Shown here: one piece after another, positions 1,727 through 63,905 of the stretch
Layout of the letters: each line of letters starts with the position of its first letter
How positions within the stretch are numbered: position 1 is the stretch's first letter
From: an uncultured Hyphomicrobiales bacterium
Lineage (GTDB): Bacteria > Pseudomonadota > Alphaproteobacteria > Rhizobiales > Hyphomicrobiaceae
Assembly: GCA_902826715.1 (NCBI GenBank)
Contig: CADEFX010000001.1
Span: 1,972 to 65,971 of the forward strand
Length of the DNA: 64,000 nucleotides
Direction: 5' to 3'
Notes under the pieces: generated by a model
What the model saw: only the letters and a program-made list of their open reading frames with translations
Database searches by the model: none
What the model was told of the DNA's origin: nothing
Translations under genes and position numbers: made by a program

Positions 1727-3124
1727 ATGGCCGCCGCCGGTTTTCGCACCGAATCCGACACGTTCGGGCCGATCGAAGTTCCCGCCGACAAATATTGGGG
1801 CGCGCAGGCGCAACGCTCGCTCGGTAATTTCAAGATCGGCTGGGAGACGCAGCCAAAGTCGATCGTTCGCGCATTAGGGATCGTCAAGCGCGCCTCCGCC
1901 GAGGTCAACATGGCCCTTGGCAAGCTCGATCCGAAACTCGGCGAAACCATCGTTGCTGCTGCGCAGGAGGTGATCGAAGGCAAGCTCGACGCGCATTTTC
2001 CACTGGTCGTCTGGCAGACCGGCTCGGGCACTCAGTCGAACATGAACGCCAACGAGGTCGTCTCGAACCGTGCCATCGAGATGATGGGCGGCGTCATGGG
2101 ATCGAAGAAGCCTGTTCACCCCAATGACCACGTCAACATGAGCCAGTCGTCCAACGACACCTATCCGACGGCCATGCACATTGCCTGCGCCGAGGAAATA
2201 CATCACCGCCTGCTGCCGGCCCTGCAGTTCCTGCGCAATGCCCTGAACGACAAGGCGCAGGCCTGGACTCGCATCATCAAGATCGGACGCACGCACACGC
2301 AGGATGCAACGCCCCTGACCCTTGGTCAGGAGTTCTCCGGCTACACCCAGCAGGTGGAGAACGGCATTGCCCGCATCGAGCAGACCATGCCTGCGTTGAT
2401 GGAACTGGCGCAAGGCGGCACTGCCGTGGGCACAGGATTGAACGCGCCCGAAGGCTTCGCTGAAATGGTGGCCGAACGCATTGCCGCGATTACGCAGCTT
2501 CGGTTTACATCCGCGCCCAACAAGTTCGAGGCGCTGGCCGCCCACGATGCCATGGTCTTCTCGCACGGCGCCATCAACACGGTAGCCGCGTCGCTGTTCA
2601 AAATCGCCAACGACATTCGCTTCCTGGGCAGCGGACCCCGCTCGGGCCTCGGCGAGTTGTCCCTGCCCGAGAACGAGCCCGGATCGTCCATCATGCCGGG
2701 CAAGGTCAATCCAACACAGTGCGAAGCCTTGACCATGGTCTGCACGCAGGTGTTCGGGAATAATGCCGCACTGACATTCGCGGACAGCCAGGGCCATTTC
2801 GAGCTCAACGTCTTCAATCCGGTGATGGCTTATAATTTCCTGCAGTCCGTTCAACTGCTCTCCGACGCGGCTGTCTCCTTTACCGACAACTGCATCGTCG
2901 GCATCGAGGCGCGAGAGGATAACATCAAGGCCGCGCTCGACCGGTCCCTGATGCTCGTCACGGCGCTGGCACCCAAGATCGGTTATGACAACGCCGCCAA
3001 GATCGCCAAGACTGCGCACAAGAACGGCACCACGCTGCGGCAGGAGGCAGTCGGCGGCGGCTATGTCACGGAAGCGGAGTTCGACGCCCTCGTCCGGCCG
3101 GAAAAAATGATCGGGCCGGGCTGA
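1727..3124 (+). CDS. fumC: class II fumarate hydratase
   Basis: Fumarate lyase signature [16 protein letters not shown]; N-terminus [22 protein letters not shown]; about 465 aa from the internal ATG at 1727 (the ORF track begins at 1676). Confidence 0.96.
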
Positions 3125-3133
3125 GATCGGGTC

Positions 3134-3325
3134 ATGGGAGAGATCGTCAACCTTCGCCAGGTGCGCCGGCAGCGGGCGCGTGCTGAGCGAGAGGCATCAG
3201 CTCTGGAAAACCGCATCCGCTTCGGCCGCACCAAGGCCGAAAGGATCAAGCAGAATGCCGACGCTTTGCTGGCGCACCGCCGCCTCGAGGCCGCCAAGCG
3301 GGATGCTCCCGAAGACGGCGCTTGA
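3134..3325 (+). CDS. DUF4169 family small protein
   Basis: 63 aa, MGEIVNLRQVRRQRARAEREASALENRIRFGRTKAER. This is the basic helical small protein typical of DUF4169, in the position seen downstream of fumC in Rhizobiales. Confidence 0.7.
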   Translation: MGEIVNLRQVRRQRARAEREASALENRIRFGRTKAERIKQNADALLAHRRLEAAKRDAPEDGA

Positions 3326-3337
3326 GCCGCGTTGTCG

Positions 3338-3562
3338 ATGTCGCGCCCGATCAAGCGTTCTTTCAGCATCGCCGGGCATCGGACATCGATCTCGTTGGAG
3401 GCAGCATTCTGGGCCGCTTTGCAGGACGCCGCAGCGCGTGAGCGCCTGCCTGTTGCGCAACTCGTGGCACGGATCGACGGGGACAGAGACGGTGCCAGCC
3501 TCTCGAGCGCCGTCCGCGTCTGGCTTCTGCACTACTATCGGTCGCCGACACCCGGGCTATAG
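3338..3562 (+). CDS. ribbon-helix-helix (RHH_4-like) domain protein
   Basis: KRSFSIAGHRTSISLEAAFWAALQDAA ... LSSAVRVWLLHYY pattern. ATG at 3338 (TTG at 3332 is an alternative). Confidence 0.7.
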   Translation: MSRPIKRSFSIAGHRTSISLEAAFWAALQDAAARERLPVAQLVARIDGDRDGASLSSAVRVWLLHYYRSPTPGL

Positions 3563-3571
3563 CGCCTGGCG

Positions 3572-6500
3572 TCAATTGCTGCGGTCGCGGATATCTCGCA
3601 GGATCTCGGCAGCGGTCGGCGGCCGGCCCTTGGATGCGGGCGGCGCGTTTTGCTTCGTTTCTCCGAGCGTCGTTGCTGCTCCCCAAGCACTCGCGCGTTG
3701 CTGTGCATCCGTTTCGCTGCGGCGTAACGCGTTCTGCCGGTCCTCCTCGATGCGCTGACGTTCGGCCTCTAATGCCCGCGTCCGCTCGGCCTCCACATTC
3801 GCACGCTCCTCGTCGCTGTGCCGCAGGCGTTCGAGCTCATCAACGTAGCGCTCAATCTTGCGCACGCTGAGCTCGCGTTCGAGTGCCTCGGTCTGCAGCT
3901 TCGGCTCCACCGTGCCGAGGCTGGCGAGAGGGCCGACGTAGACAACCGACACGCCCGGCAATGCGCCGGCCTTGCCCAGGCCGCCGCGCGCCGGCGCCGG
4001 CTTGGGCTCGATCCGCCATTCGCTGTCGAACACCATGCTCTCCGTGTCAATCGTCGTGCTGCCCGTGGCGCGGCCATCCGGCGTCTCAAGCACCACCGGC
4101 TCTAGCCGCACGGCGCCATCCACAATCGTCATGGCGATATTGCGCGGACCTAGAGGGACGACCCCGCCGCTCAAGCCTTCGTCCAGCTTGCGCCGCAGCT
4201 CCGCGTTCAGCGTTTCGCCGGGTGCGACCAGCGCTGCGAGTGCAGCCGCGTTGATCGCCCCTGGTGATAGACGGTTGAGCTGGGAACGGCCGAGTGCGAT
4301 CTGCCCCTTGCCGCGCGCCGCCGAAACGAGCCCTCTTGGACTGAGGCCGACGCTGCTGAAATCCAGCCCGAACGACACGTCGCCGATGGCGGCAGACCGA
4401 TGAGCAGGTCCAAACTGCTCCAATCGCGCATTCACGAGCTGCATCTCGCCGTGCGCGGAAATGCCGTCAGCCGCTTTGTTGAATTCGACGCGGGCTTCGG
4501 CCTTGCCGCCAAGCGCCTCGGCATTCCGCAGCACCAAGTTGAGTTTTCCGTCGACCGCCTTGGCTTCGATCTGCGCGTTGGCGACGGCCATATCCCGCGT
4601 CAATCTCAGGGTCGGCGTATTCACGCGAAAATCGAAATCGATTTCGGCCAGCGTGCTCATGTCGAGCGCGGCCTCGGGCCACAGCGCATTATCGCTGGGG
4701 CTGCCGCTCTTGCGTTCCTCAGTCTTGAGCCGGCTGTCTGCCAGTGTAGCAAGCAGGCGCGGAACACTGACCTCGGTGACATGGAGGCGGCCGCTGCCGC
4801 GCCGGCGCGCCCCGCCCAGTTCGAAACTTGCCTGACCCCCAGCCTCCATTCCCGCGAGCGCCAGTTGCCGGGCTTCGAGTTTGAGCGTGCCGCGGCTCAA
4901 CGAGGTTCCGAGCGTGGCTTGCAGGGGCACACCCTCCAGTCCCTGCCTGTGCGGCGATCCCATGAGCATGGCCGTGCGGCCGAGATCATCGGCCGTCAAC
5001 CTCGTCTCTCCCTCGATCGCGAGGCTGGCCGTGTCATCGATGACGATGCGTCCGCGGAACTCGCCGCCGATCCCCGCGGCATCGAACGTCAGCAGGGACG
5101 CGAGGCCCCGCGCCGGAACGCCGACGGCTCTGAAGGTCGCCACTGCGGGCGTGCCCGCGCCACGCGCGGACGCACCCACGAGTATGTCGGGCATCACTTG
5201 GGCCAGGACCGTCGAGACCTCGGCACCATCCAACGTAGCCGAGAGGCCGACCCGCTGTTCGCGCCAAGCGCCGCGTGCGTCGTCCAACGAGGCCCGGACC
5301 GTCAGGCGGCTGCTCGCTGCCATGCCATCGAGCGACAGATCGAAAGCCGGCATGCCCTGCGCACCCAGCACGAGATTGCCAGCCAGCTTAATCGGGCTGA
5401 GGACTTCGGCACGCCGCAAGGAGGGGCGCAGCTCCTGCGAAACGCCGAGTATTTCGGCGAGCTGGTCGAAACCGCGCACGGAAGACATCTGTCCGCCGAT
5501 GCTGCCTTTGGGCCTGCTCCCGGCAAGGCCCGTCACGGTGCCGCTGAGCTCGACTGTGAGATCGCCATCGCCCGAAAACTTGAGCAGTGGCAGCCTCAGC
5601 ATGTCTTGGTCGGCGACGACGTCCAGCGACACGTCGCGCAAGGTTTCCTGGCCGGCGACCAGCCGGCCCGTACGTACGTGCACTTCCGTCGTTCTCGCGG
5701 AAGCGCCGGAGGCGGCTGGCGTCGGCGAGCTTTTTGCGGCATCCGTGCCTTGCAGCAAACCTGCCACAAGATTGCCCAAGCGCGGATTTTCACCGAGCAG
5801 CGGTGTCACATCCAGCTCAGCTCCCTCCAAGGAAAGCTTGAGCAGCCGGTTATCTCGCCAGCTCCAGATCACCTCACCCGACAGTGAGTTGCCGGCAACT
5901 TGGAGCATCAAGCCCTTACCGGCCAATTGGCCGAGACCCACGCTCACATGGCCGCGCATCGCGAAGCTGCCATCCTGCATGAGTTCAGGAATGCCGTATC
6001 CCTGCGCCGCCCAAGCCAGAAACCGGTTAATGCTCGCCCCCCGCAGCGTCACATCGCCACTGAACGAACGATCGGCCTGCCCGGTCGCAAGCGCGCCTGT
6101 TGCATCGATCCGGGCACCGCCCGGCAAGCTGGCGTGAAGATGTCCGAGCTTCAGGACACCCTTGTCCTTCTCCAGCGTCAGTTGCAGGCCACTGACCGCC
6201 TCGCCGCCAAGATTGGCTTGGTCTACCGCAAACGTGGCCTGTGTTCGTGCGACGGCCGGCATCAGGTTGTCGATCGCCGCGGTCACATGCTCCAGGAGCG
6301 CAAGCGGCGATGTCTGCCCGTCGCCACGACCCGCAATGCGGTCAAGATCGAGCCAACGCGACTCCAGGTGCACGGACGCCGGCTGCGCGTCATGCCAGCC
6401 GAACTTGGCTTCGCCAGTTGCCAATTGCGGACGACCCTGGCTGTCGAATGACAGGGAGAGATTGGCAAGCGACACCTCATGCGTGTCGGCCTTGAGCGAT

Positions 6501-57228: not shown

Positions 57229-58815
57229 ATGAAGCTTTACCGTGCCTTCGCGACAGTCGGCGTTCTCACGCTTGTGAGCCGCATGCTCGGTTTTGTCCGC
57301 GATATTCTGCTGGCGGCAATCCTCGGCACGGGGCCGGTTGCCGAGGCATTCGTGGTGGCATTCCGATTCCCCAATCTGTTCCGCCGCTGGTTCGGCGAGG
57401 GCGCGTTCAATGCCGCCTTCATCCCGTTGTTCGCCAAGAAACTCGAGGACGAGGGCCGGGATGCGGCGCGGGCGTTTGCCGAGCAGGCAATGTCGGGACT
57501 CACGTTCATTCTGCTGCTGTTGTCAGCGGTTTGCATGATCGCCATGCCTTGGCTGATGTACGTGCTGGCGCCGGGCTTTGCCGACACGCCGGAGAAGTTC
57601 GATCTCGCCGTGCTGATGTCGCAGATCGCGTTTCCGTACCTGCTGTGCATGTCACTCGTGGCGCTGCTGTCGGGGGTGCTGAATACGCTCGGCAAGTTCA
57701 TCGAGAGCTCAATGATCTCCGTCGTGCTCAACCTGACGCTGATCGCGGCCATGCTGATCGCGCTGATCCTGGGCTATCGTAACGACCGTGGCGCCGGTCT
57801 CGTCATGGCGTGGGGTATCTTCGCGGCCGGCATTCTGCAGCTCGCGCTGCTGCTCGACGGCGCGCGCAGGAACGGTCTGGTCCCGAAGCTGCGCTGGCCT
57901 CGTTACAGCGACGACATGCGACGGCTCGTTACGCTCGGGGTGCCGGGCATCATTGCCGGTGGTGCGACGCAGATCAACATCGTCATCGGCGGCATGATTG
58001 CGTCGTGGCAAGACAGTGCGGTGTCCTACCTCTACTACGCGGACAGGCTGTACGAACTGCCGCTGGCGATCGTCGGCATTGCTATCGGGGTGGTGCTGCT
58101 GCCCGAAGTGTCGCGTGGCCTGCGCACGGGGGATCACGCGGCCGTCATGGACAGCCAGAATCGGTCGCTGGAGTTCGCGATGCTGCTGACGGTGCCGGCG
58201 GCCGTGGCACTCGCCGTCATTCCGTTTCCCATCGTCAGCACCTTGTTCGAGCGCGGGCAGTTCACGGCATCGGACACGCGCGCAGTGGGGGCCGCTTTGG
58301 CGATCTTCGCCATCGGGCTGCCGTCGTTCGTGCTCATCAAGGTGTTCTCTCCGGCGTTCTTCGCGCGCGAGGACACTGCCACGCCGATGCGCTACGCGGC
58401 GGTGAGCCTGGGCGTGAATACGGCGGGCTCCATTGCGCTGTTCCTCCTGTTCCGCCGTTTGGGGGTGATGCCGCACCTGGGCATAGCCGTGGCCACGACG
58501 GTCGGCGGGTGGCTGAACGCCTACCTGCTCTGGTCTGCTCTGCGGCGCAGGGCGCATTTCGTAGTGGACGCGCGCCTTAAACAGGCGTTGCCCATGATCA
58601 TCGTTTCCAGCATTGCGATGGGCGCGCTTCTCTGGGTTCTGGCCGCGGTGTTTGCCGAGGAGCTGGCGTCGGGAAGTAGCCTGCCGATCCGATTAGGAAC
58701 GATGGCGGGAGTCATAGCGGCGGGTCTCATCGTTTACTTTACGGTGGCGCACGTTACTGGGGCGGTGCGGCTCGGGTCGCTCAAGGCGGCCTTCACCCGG
58801 GGTCAGCCATCCTGA
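57229..58815 (+). CDS. murJ: lipid II flippase MurJ (MviN)
   Basis: LTLVSRMLGFVRDILLAAILGTGPVAEAFVVAFRFPNLFRRWFGEGAFNAAFIPLF, a canonical MurJ N-terminus; 528 aa, polytopic. Confidence 0.93.
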   Translation: MKLYRAFATVGVLTLVSRMLGFVRDILLAAILGTGPVAEAFVVAFRFPNLFRRWFGEGAFNAAFIPLFAKKLEDEGRDAARAFAEQAMSGLTFILLLLSAVCMIAMPWLMYVLAPGFADTPEKFDLAVLMSQIAFPYLLCMSLVALLSGVLNTLGKFIESSMISVVLNLTLIAAMLIALILGYRNDRGAGLVMAWGIFAAGILQLALLLDGARRNGLVPKLRWPRYSDDMRRLVTLGVPGIIAGGATQINIVIGGMIASWQDSAVSYLYYADRLYELPLAIVGIAIGVVLLPEVSRGLRTGDHAAVMDSQNRSLEFAMLLTVPAAVALAVIPFPIVSTLFERGQFTASDTRAVGAALAIFAIGLPSFVLIKVFSPAFFAREDTATPMRYAAVSLGVNTAGSIALFLLFRRLGVMPHLGIAVATTVGGWLNAYLLWSALRRRAHFVVDARLKQALPMIIVSSIAMGALLWVLAAVFAEELASGSSLPIRLGTMAGVIAAGLIVYFTVAHVTGAVRLGSLKAAFTRGQPS

Positions 58816-58872: not shown

Positions 58873-59913
58873 ATGATGAAGCTTACGCCGCGCGTATTTT
58901 CCGGCATGCAACCAACCGGCAACCTGCATCTGGGCAATTACCTGGGAGCGATGGTGCGCTGGGTGGAGATGCAGAAGAGCCACGAGTGCTTGTACTGCAT
59001 CGTCGACATGCACGCGATCACGTTGTGGCAGGAGCCGGCCGAGCTCAGGCAGTCCATCCGTGAAGTTGCGGCGGCCTACATTGCCAGCGGCCTCGATCCC
59101 AAGCGCTCGATCATCTTCAACCAGTCTCAGGTGGCGCAGCACGCGGAGCTGGCCTGGATCTTCAATTGCGTGGCGCGGCTGGGATGGCTCGATCGCATGA
59201 CGCAATTCAAGGAGAAAGCCGGCAAGGAGAAGGAGCGCGCCTCGGTCGGGCTCTACGCCTATCCGGTGCTGATGGCGGCGGATATCCTGCTGTATCGCGG
59301 CACGCACGTGCCCGTGGGCGAGGATCAAAAGCAGCACCTGGAGCTGGCACGGGATATCGCGCAGAAATTTAACAATGACTATCGCGATTCAATCGTCGCG
59401 AGCGGCTACGCCGATGGCTTGTTCTTCCCGCTGCCCGAGCCATTGATCCAAGGGCCGGCGACGCGGGTCATGAGCCTGCGCGACGGTACCAAGAAGATGT
59501 CGAAGTCGGACCCGTCGGACCTGTCGCGCATCAACATGAGCGACGACACGGATGCCATCGCGCGCAAGATCCAGAAGGCCAAAACCGATCCCGAGCCTCT
59601 GCCCTCCGAGGAGGCGGGTCTTGAAAGACGGCCGGAGGCAGACAATCTCGTGGGTATCTACGCGGCGCTTGCTGATACGACGAAGGAGGAGGTATTGGGC
59701 CAGTTCGGCGGCAGCCAGTTCTCGGTCTTCAAGAAAGAGCTGGCGGAGGTGGCCGTCGCGCGCGTTGCACCGGTCAACGCCGAGATGCAACGGCTTCTGG
59801 GCGATCCGGCGGAGATCGACCGCATCCTGGCGAATGGAGCGAGCCGGGCGCGGACCTTGGCGCAACCAATCCTGACCGAGATCAAGAACATCGTCGGGTT
59901 TATTCAGAGTTGA
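58873..59913 (+). CDS. trpS: tryptophan--tRNA ligase
   Basis: [17 protein letters not shown] (HIGH-type), [15 protein letters not shown]; 346 aa. Confidence 0.96.
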
Positions 59914-61288: not shown

Positions 61289-61885
61289 ATGATGTCTGCG
61301 CCCGTGTCTGATGCTGTCCTTGACCAGATCTATCGATCGGCGCGGACAAACAACAAATGGCAGGCGAAGGATGTGCCTGACGATCTCCTGCGCGATATAG
61401 TCGATCTGGCCAAGATGGGGCCGACGAGTGCGAACTGTCAGCCGGCGCGGTTCCTGTTCGTGAAGTCGCCGCAGGCCAAGCAGCGCCTGAAGCCGTTCCT
61501 GTCGTCGACCAATGCTGAAAAGACCATGCAGGCGCCGGTGTGCGCGATCATCGGCTACGATCTGCGATTTTACGAGCACCTGCCGCGACTGTTTCCGCAC
61601 AACCCGACGGCACGCACTTGGTTCGAGGGCAACGAAGCCCACATCATGACGACGGCGCTCAGGAACAGCTCGCTGCAGGGCGCCTACCTGATTCTCGCTG
61701 CGCGGGCGCTGGGCTTGGATACCGGTCCGATGTCGGGCTTCGACAATGCGGGTGTCGACAAGGAATTTTTTGCCGGAACATCGGTAAAGTCGAATTTCAT
61801 ATGTAGCCTGGGCTATGGCGATCCGGCCGGCGTCCATCCGCGCGGACCGCGTTTCGCCTTCGACGAGATGGCAAAGATCCTTTGA
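61289..61885 (+). CDS. nitroreductase-family protein, malonic semialdehyde reductase RutE-like
   Basis: LDQIYRSARTNNKW, MGPTSANCQPARFLFV, GLDTGPMSGFD motifs; 198 aa; AGGAG Shine-Dalgarno. Confidence 0.82.
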   Translation: MMSAPVSDAVLDQIYRSARTNNKWQAKDVPDDLLRDIVDLAKMGPTSANCQPARFLFVKSPQAKQRLKPFLSSTNAEKTMQAPVCAIIGYDLRFYEHLPRLFPHNPTARTWFEGNEAHIMTTALRNSSLQGAYLILAARALGLDTGPMSGFDNAGVDKEFFAGTSVKSNFICSLGYGDPAGVHPRGPRFAFDEMAKIL

Positions 61886-61898
61886 TGCAGCGAGGCCG

Positions 61899-62591
61899 AT
61901 GAGCCTTCTCGCCTTCGATACGTGTTTCGGTGCTGTGTCCGTTGCTGTCGGCAGGCAACAGGCGGACGGCGGCTGGCTTACGCATGAAGCCTACGAAGAG
62001 ATGGCGGTCGGCCAGGCCGAGCGGCTGATGCCGATGATCGACGAGGTGATGCGGGCCGCGGGCGTGGATTTCACGCAGGTATCGAGGATCGCGGTCACGC
62101 GGGGGCCGGGCTCGTTCACGGGCGTGCGCGTCGGCGTGGCGTCGGCGCGGGCGCTTGCGCTGGCGACAGGTGCGGAGCTGGTGGCAACGACGAGCCTTGC
62201 CGTCGTGGCCGCAGCCGCCGATGGAGAGTTGGAGGGACGTGGCAATACTCTGTTGGCCGTCGTCATGGATGCACGGCGCGGTGGCCTCTACATGCAAGTT
62301 TTTGGGAACCATGCGCGCGATGAGCTGACGGCCGCGTCCGAAGTGACGCCTGAGGCTGGTGCGGCGCTCCTTGCGGGCCGGCACGCGATCGCGGTGGGTT
62401 CGGGCGCCCAAGCGCTCGCCCGGGCGGCCGGCGAAGGCCTAGTCGAGGTGCGAATGCCCGGCATGCAGCCACGCGCCACCTCGCTTCTTGCGATAGCGTC
62501 CGAACTTCCTCCGGTCGAAACGGTGACACCGCTGTACATTCGCCAGCCGGATGCCAAGGCGCAGGCACACGGGAGCTTGTTGAAAGGCTGA
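61899..62591 (+). CDS. tsaB: tRNA threonylcarbamoyladenosine biosynthesis protein TsaB
   Basis: LLAFDTCFGAVSVAV, VTRGPGSFTGVRVGVASARALAL. Internal ATG at 61899. Confidence 0.85.
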   Translation: MSLLAFDTCFGAVSVAVGRQQADGGWLTHEAYEEMAVGQAERLMPMIDEVMRAAGVDFTQVSRIAVTRGPGSFTGVRVGVASARALALATGAELVATTSLAVVAAAADGELEGRGNTLLAVVMDARRGGLYMQVFGNHARDELTAASEVTPEAGAALLAGRHAIAVGSGAQALARAAGEGLVEVRMPGMQPRATSLLAIASELPPVETVTPLYIRQPDAKAQAHGSLLKG

Positions 62592-62598
62592 TTGCGAC

Positions 62599-63081
62599 GT
62601 GCCCGAGAAGCGACATCTGCTCCATCTGCAGCCGGCGACGCCGGAATTTGCCGGCGATATATCGGCCCTGCACAGCAGCCTGTTCGAGAAGGCATGGGAC
62701 GCGGACGGCGTGCGGCGTCTCCTTGAGCATCCGGCATCCGTTGCGCTGGTTGCGACGGCGGAGCGGCCGTGGCGTGTGATCGGATTCATTCTGGCGCAGC
62801 TGACGGCCGATGAGGCCGAGATTCTGTCGCTGGGCGTCGGGGTCATGTCGCAGCGCGCGGGCATCGGCAAGATGCTCGTGCAAGGGCTGATCGAGATGGC
62901 GCAGCGCAAAGGCGTGAAGCGGATCTTTCTCGACGTCGCGGCCAGCAACGCTGCGGCCATCGGTCTTTATCGCGCGATGGACTTCGCTGAGATGGGCCGG
63001 CGCAAGGAGTACTACAGCCACAACGGCGGACGCCGCGAGGATGCACTGCTGATGGTGCGCGACCTTGGCGAGAGTTCATAA
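62599..63081 (+). CDS. rimI: ribosomal-protein-alanine N-acetyltransferase (GNAT)
   Basis: GNAT acetyl-CoA motif VMSQRAGIGKMLV, FLDVAASNAAAIGLYRAMDF. It is adjacent to tsaB, as is usual. GTG start. Confidence 0.83.
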   Translation: MPEKRHLLHLQPATPEFAGDISALHSSLFEKAWDADGVRRLLEHPASVALVATAERPWRVIGFILAQLTADEAEILSLGVGVMSQRAGIGKMLVQGLIEMAQRKGVKRIFLDVAASNAAAIGLYRAMDFAEMGRRKEYYSHNGGRREDALLMVRDLGESS

Positions 63082-63257
63082 GCGGTCGAATTTCGCCACT
63101 AGGGCTGGATCGCTTGAGAAAACCCCGATCTTGAGCGTTGCGCCTGGATTGTGTTCAAGAAGTTATCGCTTCCATAACGGCAACGCATTTCCGCCTTCTC
63201 CTTGCGCAGCGCAGGGTTACGCTGGCCGACAAACATCAGAAGGCACAAGGAGGACGT

Positions 63258-63905
63258 ATGCCCCTCAAGGACAAACTCGACGAAACGCGTACCGGGTCGG
63301 CCAAACGCCGGACCGCCGAGCAGCGCGCCATAATGCAGCGCGCAACCGAAGATCTTCGCGCCTCCGGCATTCTCGACACCGTGCTGAAGGCCGGTCAGGT
63401 CATGCCCGCCTTTACCGGCACCAGCCATGACGGACGCACGATCGGCTCCGCCGGCCTGCTCCAGCAAGGGCCGCTGGTGCTGTCATTCTTCCGCGGACAC
63501 TGGTGACCGTATTGCCGGCATGAGCTGGATGCTCTGCAAGCAATCTACGCTGACATCAAAACTGCCGCTGGCGAAATCGTCGTGTTATCGAGCGAGACCG
63601 GCGATGTCTCCGGCCAGATGGCCGCCAAGCAGGGCCTGACGTTCCCGATCGTGCAGGACGCGGGGCTTGCCATCGCGCGATCGTTTGGGCTTGCCTTCAC
63701 GCTGCCCGACGACCTGAAAGCCCTGTACCAGAGTTTCAGCATCGACCTACCGAAGAACACCGGCCACCCCGCCTGGGAGCTGCCGATGCCTGCGCGCTAT
63801 GTGATCGACAGAAACGGGATGGTCCGCTCCGCTGAGGTTGACCCGGACTACACGGTTCGCCTCGAGCCCGCGGACACGCTGGCGATCGTGCGGAGCTTGG
63901 GTTGA
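63258..63905 (+). CDS. peroxiredoxin-like (PRX_like2, thioredoxin-fold) protein with an in-frame TGA at 63504-63506; candidate selenoprotein (UPYC redox motif)
   Basis: ORFs 63138-63506 and 63582-63905 are in the same frame, and the sequence between them is also open. The joined product reads ...GPLVLSFFRGHW[TGA]PYCRHELDAL...LPMPARYVIDRNG...DPDYT, colinear with the PRX_like2 family, whose Cys forms read WCPYC. ATG at 63258 with an AAGGAGGA Shine-Dalgarno. Confidence 0.6.
63511..63544 (+). promoter_or_regulatory. candidate bacterial SECIS hairpin
   Basis: Numbering the U of UGA as 1: pairs 8-41, 9-40, 10-39, 11-38, 12-37; a 2x2 internal loop; pairs 15-34, 16-33, 17-32; bulged U18; pairs 19-31, 20-30, 21-29, 22-28; apical loop UGGAU (23-27). 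This compares with E. coli fdhF, which has bulged U17 and loop G23 U24. Confidence 0.5.

Follow-up and report, generated by a model that had tools for sequence, protein, structure and literature searches.

The window examined here is a 64,000-nucleotide stretch of DNA from an uncultured Hyphomicrobiales bacterium (GenBank assembly GCA_902826715.1, contig CADEFX010000001.1, positions 1,972 to 65,971 of the forward strand). Close to its 3′ end lies a gene for a peroxiredoxin-like (Prx-like) protein of apparent PRX_like2 type that is interrupted by a UGA, a candidate codon for selenocysteine (Sec). Positions 63258-63905 of the + strand form one frame of 215 codons with a single internal TGA at 63504-63506, as a preliminary description of the window had stated and translation bears out. 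The frame reads MPLKDKLD...FFRGHW-stop-PYCRHELDALQ...DPDYTVRLEPADTLAIVRSLG-stop, which puts the internal TGA in the context FFRGHW-U-PYC and the terminal TGA at 63903-63905. The motifs quoted for it, GPLVLSFFRGHW-stop-PYC, LPMPARYVIDRNG and DPDYT, are all found, and both fragment open reading frames (ORFs), 63138-63506 and 63582-63905, are present in the mechanical ORF list. The start site held up in part: reading of the sequence places a Shine-Dalgarno-like AAGGAGGA before the ATG (63247-63254, + strand), but the intervening CGT makes a spacer of 3 nucleotides (nt) and not 4.

The internal TGA is codon 83 on the + strand and occupies the first position of a U-P-Y-C motif. The N-terminal coding part before it (63258-63503, +) has 82 codons and comprises a two-helix extension, the first beta strands and the FFRGHW that precedes the proposed Sec codon. 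The C-terminal coding part (63507-63902, +) has 132 codons and includes the cis-Pro/Arg segment LPMPARYVID (63780-63809) and DPDYT. Cys86 (TGC, 63513-63515, +), the partner (resolving) cysteine of the UxxC pair, is invariant in the alignments and equivalent to the position of the peroxidatic Cys of peroxiredoxins. In the family alignment P176 and P178 are invariant as well, and R180 is nearly so (at least 90%). The genuine stop TGA (63903-63905, +) stands at the conserved end of the family, and most relatives likewise end with TGA at the same C-terminal place. The GC content at third codon positions (GC3) is 0.79, in line with the neighbours of the gene in the window.

With Cys placed at the TGA, the protein matches the Pfam families AhpC-TSA (PF00578, residues 46-191, E=5.5e-22, 78.5 bits against a cut-off of 26) and Redoxin (PF08534, residues 44-199, E=5e-17, 62.5 bits against a cut-off of 26.6). 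Because these matches extend on both sides of the TGA, one domain runs through the stop, in agreement with the earlier claim that the two sides are colinear with a single thioredoxin-fold family. None of the NCBIfam models reaches its cut-off for the protein. The selenoprotein-aware models SelL_rel_redox (NF040769) and redoxin_TUGYCR (NF053656) score 26.1 bits against 120 and 19 bits against 100, and the models for thiol peroxidase and ResA score 24.6 bits against 140 and 41.5 bits against 170. The nearest solved structures by sequence are ResA/TlpA-type thiol-disulfide oxidoreductases (PDB 4nmu, 3c71, 1su9). The ResA motif GTWCKPC is aligned to GHWUPYC, with Sec opposite the first Cys of the ResA WCxxC, and its cis-Pro segment PLPTSFLID is aligned to PMPARYVID. 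The ResA/TlpA proteins are membrane-anchored and extracytoplasmic, and they differ from the gene product in lacking its two N-terminal helices.

A Cys homologue with 49% identity to the window protein (P0009) has an AlphaFold2 model (predicted local distance difference test, pLDDT, 94.8) of a peroxiredoxin-type fold on which helices 3-15 and 25-40 are packed. Its best structural matches are Bcp4, BcpB, PrxQ and AhpE (PDB 3hjp, 5epf, 4gqf, 1xvw), followed by ResA; for the BCP/PrxQ/AhpE structures the template modelling score normalised to the target is 0.8-0.9. These peroxiredoxins are the closest folds to the model, but the gene product does not have their PxxxTxxC signature. In an alignment with E. 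coli BCP, Sec83 falls on the Thr of TxxC, Cys86 on the peroxidatic Cys45 and Arg79 on the Pro, so that the signature PxxxT/SxxC is absent with Arg79 at its Pro position and Sec83 at its Thr position. The gene product is therefore not a canonical peroxiredoxin. The earlier placement of the UGA at a redox-active Cys stands with respect to the Cys of WCPYC, to which it is aligned, but in canonical peroxiredoxins the same position is the Thr and not the peroxidatic Cys. From its sequence the predicted product is a Prx-like scaffold with a thioredoxin-type redox pair, whose nucleophilic first member is the putative Sec. Glutathione peroxidases have their Sec at the same position. PRX_like2 (CDD cd02970) is defined by a CxxC on a Prx-like fold without the peroxiredoxin Pro and Thr; the motif features of this definition are present in the gene product, and full-length homologues are named 'peroxiredoxin-like family protein' by NCBI.

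When 5.8 billion proteins were searched, every one of the closest hits (63-78% identity) proved to be a C-terminal fragment of 123-134 amino acids starting just past the CxxC motif, and full-length WCPYC matches reach only 41-49% identity. Every fetched contig of those fragments has an 82-amino-acid ORF ending in TGA directly upstream, and translation through this TGA gives FFRGHW-stop-PYC. Further loci came from scans of GTDB genomes and of metagenomes at JGI. In the latter, the seed was FTLPDDLK, which alone among the patterns can match a TGA-bearing gene and which is blind to the codon at the site. Among 93 loci bearing the [RK]G.W.P.C motif, 88, from metagenome-assembled genomes (MAGs) and soil metagenomes, have TGA at the site; the other five have TGC or TGT and are either at most 40% identical or a paralogue. 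Among these TGA-bearing members the lowest identities to the window are 46-48% (the LTVFRG[ST]W-stop-PYC group), and a locus found separately from the 88 (L100, 40% identity) has TGA at the same codon. Named carriers are the Hyphomicrobiaceae MAGs L007 (87% identity) and L008, an uncultured Rhizobiaceae MAG (L009) and a 'Proteobacteria bacterium' MAG (L001), and many further members lie on soil metagenome contigs. With an identical TGA in 88 independent related loci, and in L100, chance is far from sufficient as an explanation. U83 is opposite Cys in all 49 true Cys forms (WCPYC), as expected from the proposed alignment with full-length Cys orthologues.

The whole gene lies within the contig in 77 of the 88 TGA-bearing loci. 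Of these complete loci 72 are intact, with 81-82 codons before the TGA (mostly exactly 82, sometimes 81), 131-135 after it and no other lesion; they start with ATG, or with GTG in two cases. As the gene and most orthologues end in TGA, UGA is a stop in these genomes except at the site marked by the hairpin described below, which resembles a selenocysteine insertion sequence (SECIS). Genome-wide reassignment of UGA was considered and rejected for the same TGA at the conserved C-terminus. Selection was measured by the Nei-Gojobori ratio of nonsynonymous to synonymous substitution rates (dN/dS) among 67 distinct sequences, limited to the 952 pairs whose dS lies at 0.1-1.5. The median is 0.31 on either side of the TGA; when the window is compared with L007, the ratio is 0.26 upstream and 0.16 downstream. 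Equal purifying selection in the same frame on both halves excludes a pseudogene and two independent genes. In a neighbour-joining tree of 67 Sec forms and 101 full-length database forms (99 with Cys and 2 with W at the site), all Sec forms group in a single clade, which holds only 4 Cys forms. These nested Cys forms are P0016, P0027, P0065 and P0108 (Bauldia litoralis), and their position suggests occasional Sec-to-Cys reversion, or tree noise.

Constraint at the RNA level is concentrated directly past the UGA. Identity of synonymous codons peaks at 0.86 in alignment columns 89-94, which lie 5-10 codons past the UGA; the mean over the gene is 0.54. All seven top-ranking sliding windows of 6 codons overlap columns 85-96, and the codons GAG, CUG and GCU show no variation among the 67 distinct sequences. 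The minimum free energy (MFE) fold of this region in the window is a SECIS-like upper stem-loop (63518-63537, +), made up of GCA, a bulged U, GAGC, the loop UGGAU (63526-63530), GCUC and UGC. When the U of UGA is counted as 1, the 5′ strand of the hairpin is G15 C16 A17, bulged U18 and G19 A20 G21 C22, the loop is U23 G24 G25 A26 U27 and the 3′ strand is G28 C29 U30 C31 followed by U32 G33 C34. An extended stem around it (63508-63549, +) includes the lower helices UUGC/GCAA and CGUA/UACG, which are less conserved; the MFE structure of 67 nt has -17.1 kcal/mol. The UGC/GCA lower stem recurs in several relatives.

Among 31 representatives the four core pairs are invariant, save for a change of G-C to G-U at positions 19/31, and the lower 3 base pairs (bp) are kept in one of two registers. 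The bulged-U register is used by 18 representatives, including one with a compensatory C-G to U-A change (L021). The other 13 have a bulge-free register in which the amino acids of codons 88-89 vary and the pairing to U32 G33 C34 is retained. The MFE structure computed with RNAfold holds the hairpin in 50 of 51 distinct Sec forms (mean -11.9 kcal/mol over 33 nt) and in 0 of 7 distinct Cys forms. Several Cys forms, for example L097 (ELQALQ), encode the same E-L-x-A-L-Q peptide by other codons and without the hairpin. In L100 the hairpin is rebuilt as CUGGAGC / UGGACGC / GCUCCAG, with a different 3′ strand and a loop that again starts at nucleotide 23 with UGG.

A bacterial SECIS (bSECIS) element is described as having a loop of 3-9 nt, an upper stem of 4-16 bp and an MFE of -7.5 kcal/mol or lower, with a G among the first two loop nucleotides, a G or U after it and a distance of 16-37 nt to the UGA (PMC13188914). 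The hairpin of the window agrees with all four bSECIS criteria: its 5-nt loop UGGAU begins 19 nt past the UGA and has G at position 2 followed by G/U, its stem is 4+3 bp and its energy is -13.7 kcal/mol. Like the SECIS of E. coli fdhF and the bSECIS consensus, it lies directly after the UGA and has a small apical loop with G and then G/U at positions 2-3. A short upper stem with a bulged U beneath it in the 5′ strand is another feature in common with fdhF. The sequence is unrelated to that of fdhF, and the loop has 5 nt (UGGAU) rather than GGUC. Rfam at gathering thresholds gives no match for the hairpin or anywhere in the 64-kb window.

Positions 63258-63905 are thus very probably a single functional gene for a PRX_like2-type protein of 215 residues in which UGA is recoded to Sec, the reading put forward in the preliminary description. 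It is built on the continuity of the frame, the Cys/Sec alignment, the UGA that is clade-wide and conserved to 46% identity (40% with L100), the equal selection on both halves and the conserved SECIS-like hairpin. The product would be a cytoplasmic thioredoxin-fold peroxiredoxin-like protein with the redox motif U-P-Y-C. As the ribosome reaches the UGA at 63504, the downstream mRNA hairpin would recruit SelB with Sec-tRNA(Sec). The selenolate at the N-terminus of helix alpha1 could then act as a nucleophile on a disulfide, a sulfenic acid or a peroxide, after which a selenenylsulfide would form with Cys86 and a cellular thiol reductant would restore the enzyme. Actual Sec insertion, the binding of SelB, the chemical mechanism and the substrate are what we infer from these features. 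No conserved gene neighbourhood among the related loci indicates a substrate.

Several results weigh against recoding. ARAGORN finds 0 tRNAs in the 64-kb window, hence no tRNA-Sec, and tblastn with E. coli queries, of which those for SelB and SelD had no positive control, finds no match to selA, selB or selD there. The sole sel match of the same search in any fetched locus is a decayed selA fragment in L028 and L030. The folding energy of the hairpin is not significant against shuffled sequence (z = -0.9), so that comparative evidence was relied on. Strict covariation is thin, with one compensatory pair and core pairs that never vary, and, owing to the two registers of the lower stem, RNAalifold retained nothing beyond the invariant 4-bp core. 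Extra lesions occur in 8 related loci in all. In L005 (3208-3215) and L006 (3232-3239), two European Nucleotide Archive assemblies of one organism, CCCCC instead of CCC follows the TGA and causes a +2 frameshift; the hairpin and the downstream ORF are intact despite the frameshift. A pseudogene of recent origin or an error in the assembly of the homopolymer could explain it, as could some other cause. L078 carries an additional TAG, L041, L068, L069 and L081 have frameshifts and L067 has a tandem duplication of 11 amino acids (AVRNGDPSWRL); these six loci lie mostly on short, low-coverage contigs. The lesions in the eight loci could be low-coverage assembly errors or occasional decay. Degraded copies in close relatives had been set beforehand as a sign of a pseudogene, and this is not what is seen, with 72 of the 77 complete TGA loci intact and 8 related loci lesioned.

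The selA fragments (L028 1613-1953, L030 1678-1946) are found on soil metagenome contigs about 430 nt downstream of a TGA-bearing Prx-like gene. Pfam SelA is matched at E=5e-23, though over no more than positions 93-151 of a profile of 367, and the pieces found by tblastn lie in three frames. The fragment may be a relic of a former linkage to a sel operon, or reflect decay of the Sec trait in that lineage. The Sec trait, with selB and a nested selC, occurs in diverse Rhizobiales (PMC8124441). A scan of the window for TGA-interrupted frames of high GC3 gave no second selenoprotein candidate, at a threshold (GC3 > 0.75) that missed the 63504 site itself.

A PRX_like2 gene killed by a TGC-to-TGA nonsense mutation, which would leave fragments only, if any, would explain why one stop splits the fold, why no Sec machinery lies in the window and why a few relatives carry additional lesions. 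Such a pseudogene is nevertheless very unlikely. The same TGA is shared by 88 loci in unrelated genomic contexts and at identities down to 46%, dN/dS is 0.31 on either side of it with 72 of 77 complete genes otherwise undamaged, and there is extra RNA-level constraint directly past the stop. A nonsense allele is not expected to persist across such divergence, and at the level of the clade this explanation is effectively refuted. It is also improbable that UGA is read as a standard amino acid, be it Cys delivered on tRNA-Sec or else Trp or Cys put in through near-cognate or suppressor decoding, with the hairpin as a generic stimulator of read-through. No Sec machinery was found in the window, Sec insertion itself is something we infer and some pipelines translated relatives with TGA as Trp, all of which would fit such decoding. 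However, the site is that of the nucleophilic Cys of CxxC, where Trp or Gly would abolish the redox centre, and the geometry of the hairpin with its G[G/U] loop fits the SelB-dependent bSECIS model. UGA ends the gene and most orthologues, which points to the standard genetic code, and Prx-like selenoproteins with UxxC have been documented as a class (PMC1088965, PMC2398784).

The output of gene callers in the relatives is exactly what would be expected from two separate genes, one for a protein of 82 amino acids and one for a protein of about 107-128 amino acids, with the thioredoxin fold split between them. However, the first in-frame start past the TGA is a GTG at 63582, 26 codons on, and a protein begun there would lose PYC and most of helix alpha1. 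The called starts vary among relatives (LQAVY, MELDALQ, MQAIY, MTPYC) with no conserved start, and the codons between the TGA and these starts are under amino-acid as well as synonymous constraint, which makes a pair of genes extremely unlikely. A sequencing or assembly error that made TGC into TGA in the record would take only a single-base difference, but with the same codon in 88 independent assemblies it is hardly conceivable.

As a recoded gene, 63258-63905 would belong to a known type of selenoprotein, the Prx-like UxxC proteins, which entered the catalogues in 2004-2005 and abound in marine metagenomes. A 'Prx-like protein' was described from the Sargasso Sea with UXXC in 21 of the 22 sequences of its family (PMC1088965), and 225 sequences of 'Prx-like 1, pfam00578, UxxC' were found in the Global Ocean Sampling survey (PMC2398784). 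In 2016 a 'Prx-like thiol:disulfide oxidoreductase' was listed in 28 genomes (PMC5029168). When compared by published description, the gene product agrees with the definition of this last family as PF00578-related with UxxC or UxxU and one or two Sec (PMC13188914, PMC2398784). The Prx-like selenoproteins of Kryukov, Zhang and Gladyshev likewise have distant homology to PF00578, UxxC in place of TxxU, one Sec and widespread Cys homologues (PMC1088965, PMC2398784, PMC13188914). They have been reported mainly from Deltaproteobacteria (Geobacter, Syntrophus, Desulfotalea) and marine metagenomes, whereas the present members come from Hyphomicrobiaceae/Rhizobiaceae MAGs and soil contigs. As of 2006, no selenoprotein family other than FdhA had been found in Alphaproteobacteria (PMC1794560). 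Among the entries of a 2026 review is a selenoprotein of cd02970, named 'peroxiredoxin-like family protein', whose motif is UxxS (PMC13188914). It likewise has one Sec at the first motif position and bears the NCBI name of the Cys homologues described here, but has UxxS in contrast to UPYC with its invariant second Cys.

The Cys-containing PRX_like2 proteins of Rhizobium terrae, Herbaspirillum, Caulobacteraceae and Bauldia are of equal length, have the N-terminal helical extension and are 41-49% identical to the gene product, with which they have the motifs FxRGxW-C-PYC, LPMPARYV and DPDYT in common. Unlike the Sec forms, they use TGC or TGT at this codon, and no conserved hairpin follows. Set beside the catalogued families by description, the Sec forms could be a distinct, uncatalogued PRX_like2 U-P-Y-C subfamily with a SECIS of its own (GAGCUG-GNN-GCU), common in soil metagenomes and Hyphomicrobiales MAGs. 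This is a tentative proposal, as is its corollary that Sec possibly serves as a peroxidatic selenol in the style of glutathione peroxidase, with a built-in resolving Cys, rather than in a disulfide reductase.

In every relative examined, the gene is either split into two ORFs (82 and about 125 amino acids) or has its TGA translated as Trp. Truncated annotation had been foreseen, and the relatives are indeed recorded as fragments. For example, a JGI 'peroxiredoxin' of 216 amino acids with RWWPYC (P0061, encoded at L100 475-1125) has TGA in its DNA and was thus called with a code in which TGA is Trp. In P0002 (SWGPYC), of the L044-L047 subgroup, the TGA was probably read as Gly. Given these two cases, public protein sets contain mistranslated selenoproteins. 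A GenBank relative (P0052) is annotated as a fragment of 127 amino acids, which, together with the lack of an NCBIfam model at its cut-off, suggests that NCBI automated annotation misses the gene. It follows that inventories of redox enzymes and estimates of selenium use in soil bacteria come out too low. A family model built from the 67 distinct sequences and the conserved SECIS could correct hundreds of records. If recoded as proposed, the gene adds a candidate Sec-dependent thiol/peroxide oxidoreductase to Hyphomicrobiaceae- and Rhizobiaceae-like MAGs, and the main value lies in the annotation fix and in a well-populated family with a clearly defined SECIS.

The context upstream of the gene in the window is housekeeping, with murJ (57229-58815) and trpS (58873-59913) followed by a tsaB-like gene (61815-62591) and a GNAT/rimI-like gene (62599-63081). 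In a synteny test neither the tsaB-like nor the rimI-like gene of the window has a match in any related locus, and genomic neighbourhoods differ among these loci. As the upstream context is common to no related locus, the gene sits in variable neighbourhoods. In the Rhizobiaceae MAG L009 a Cys paralogue (WCPYC with TGT, 444-1136) and the Sec form (3001-3648) lie on the same strand about 2 kb apart, a pair that offers a natural comparison for the catalytic benefit of selenium. Between the two are an EamA transporter-like ORF and a glutathione S-transferase-like ORF, both assigned by eye.

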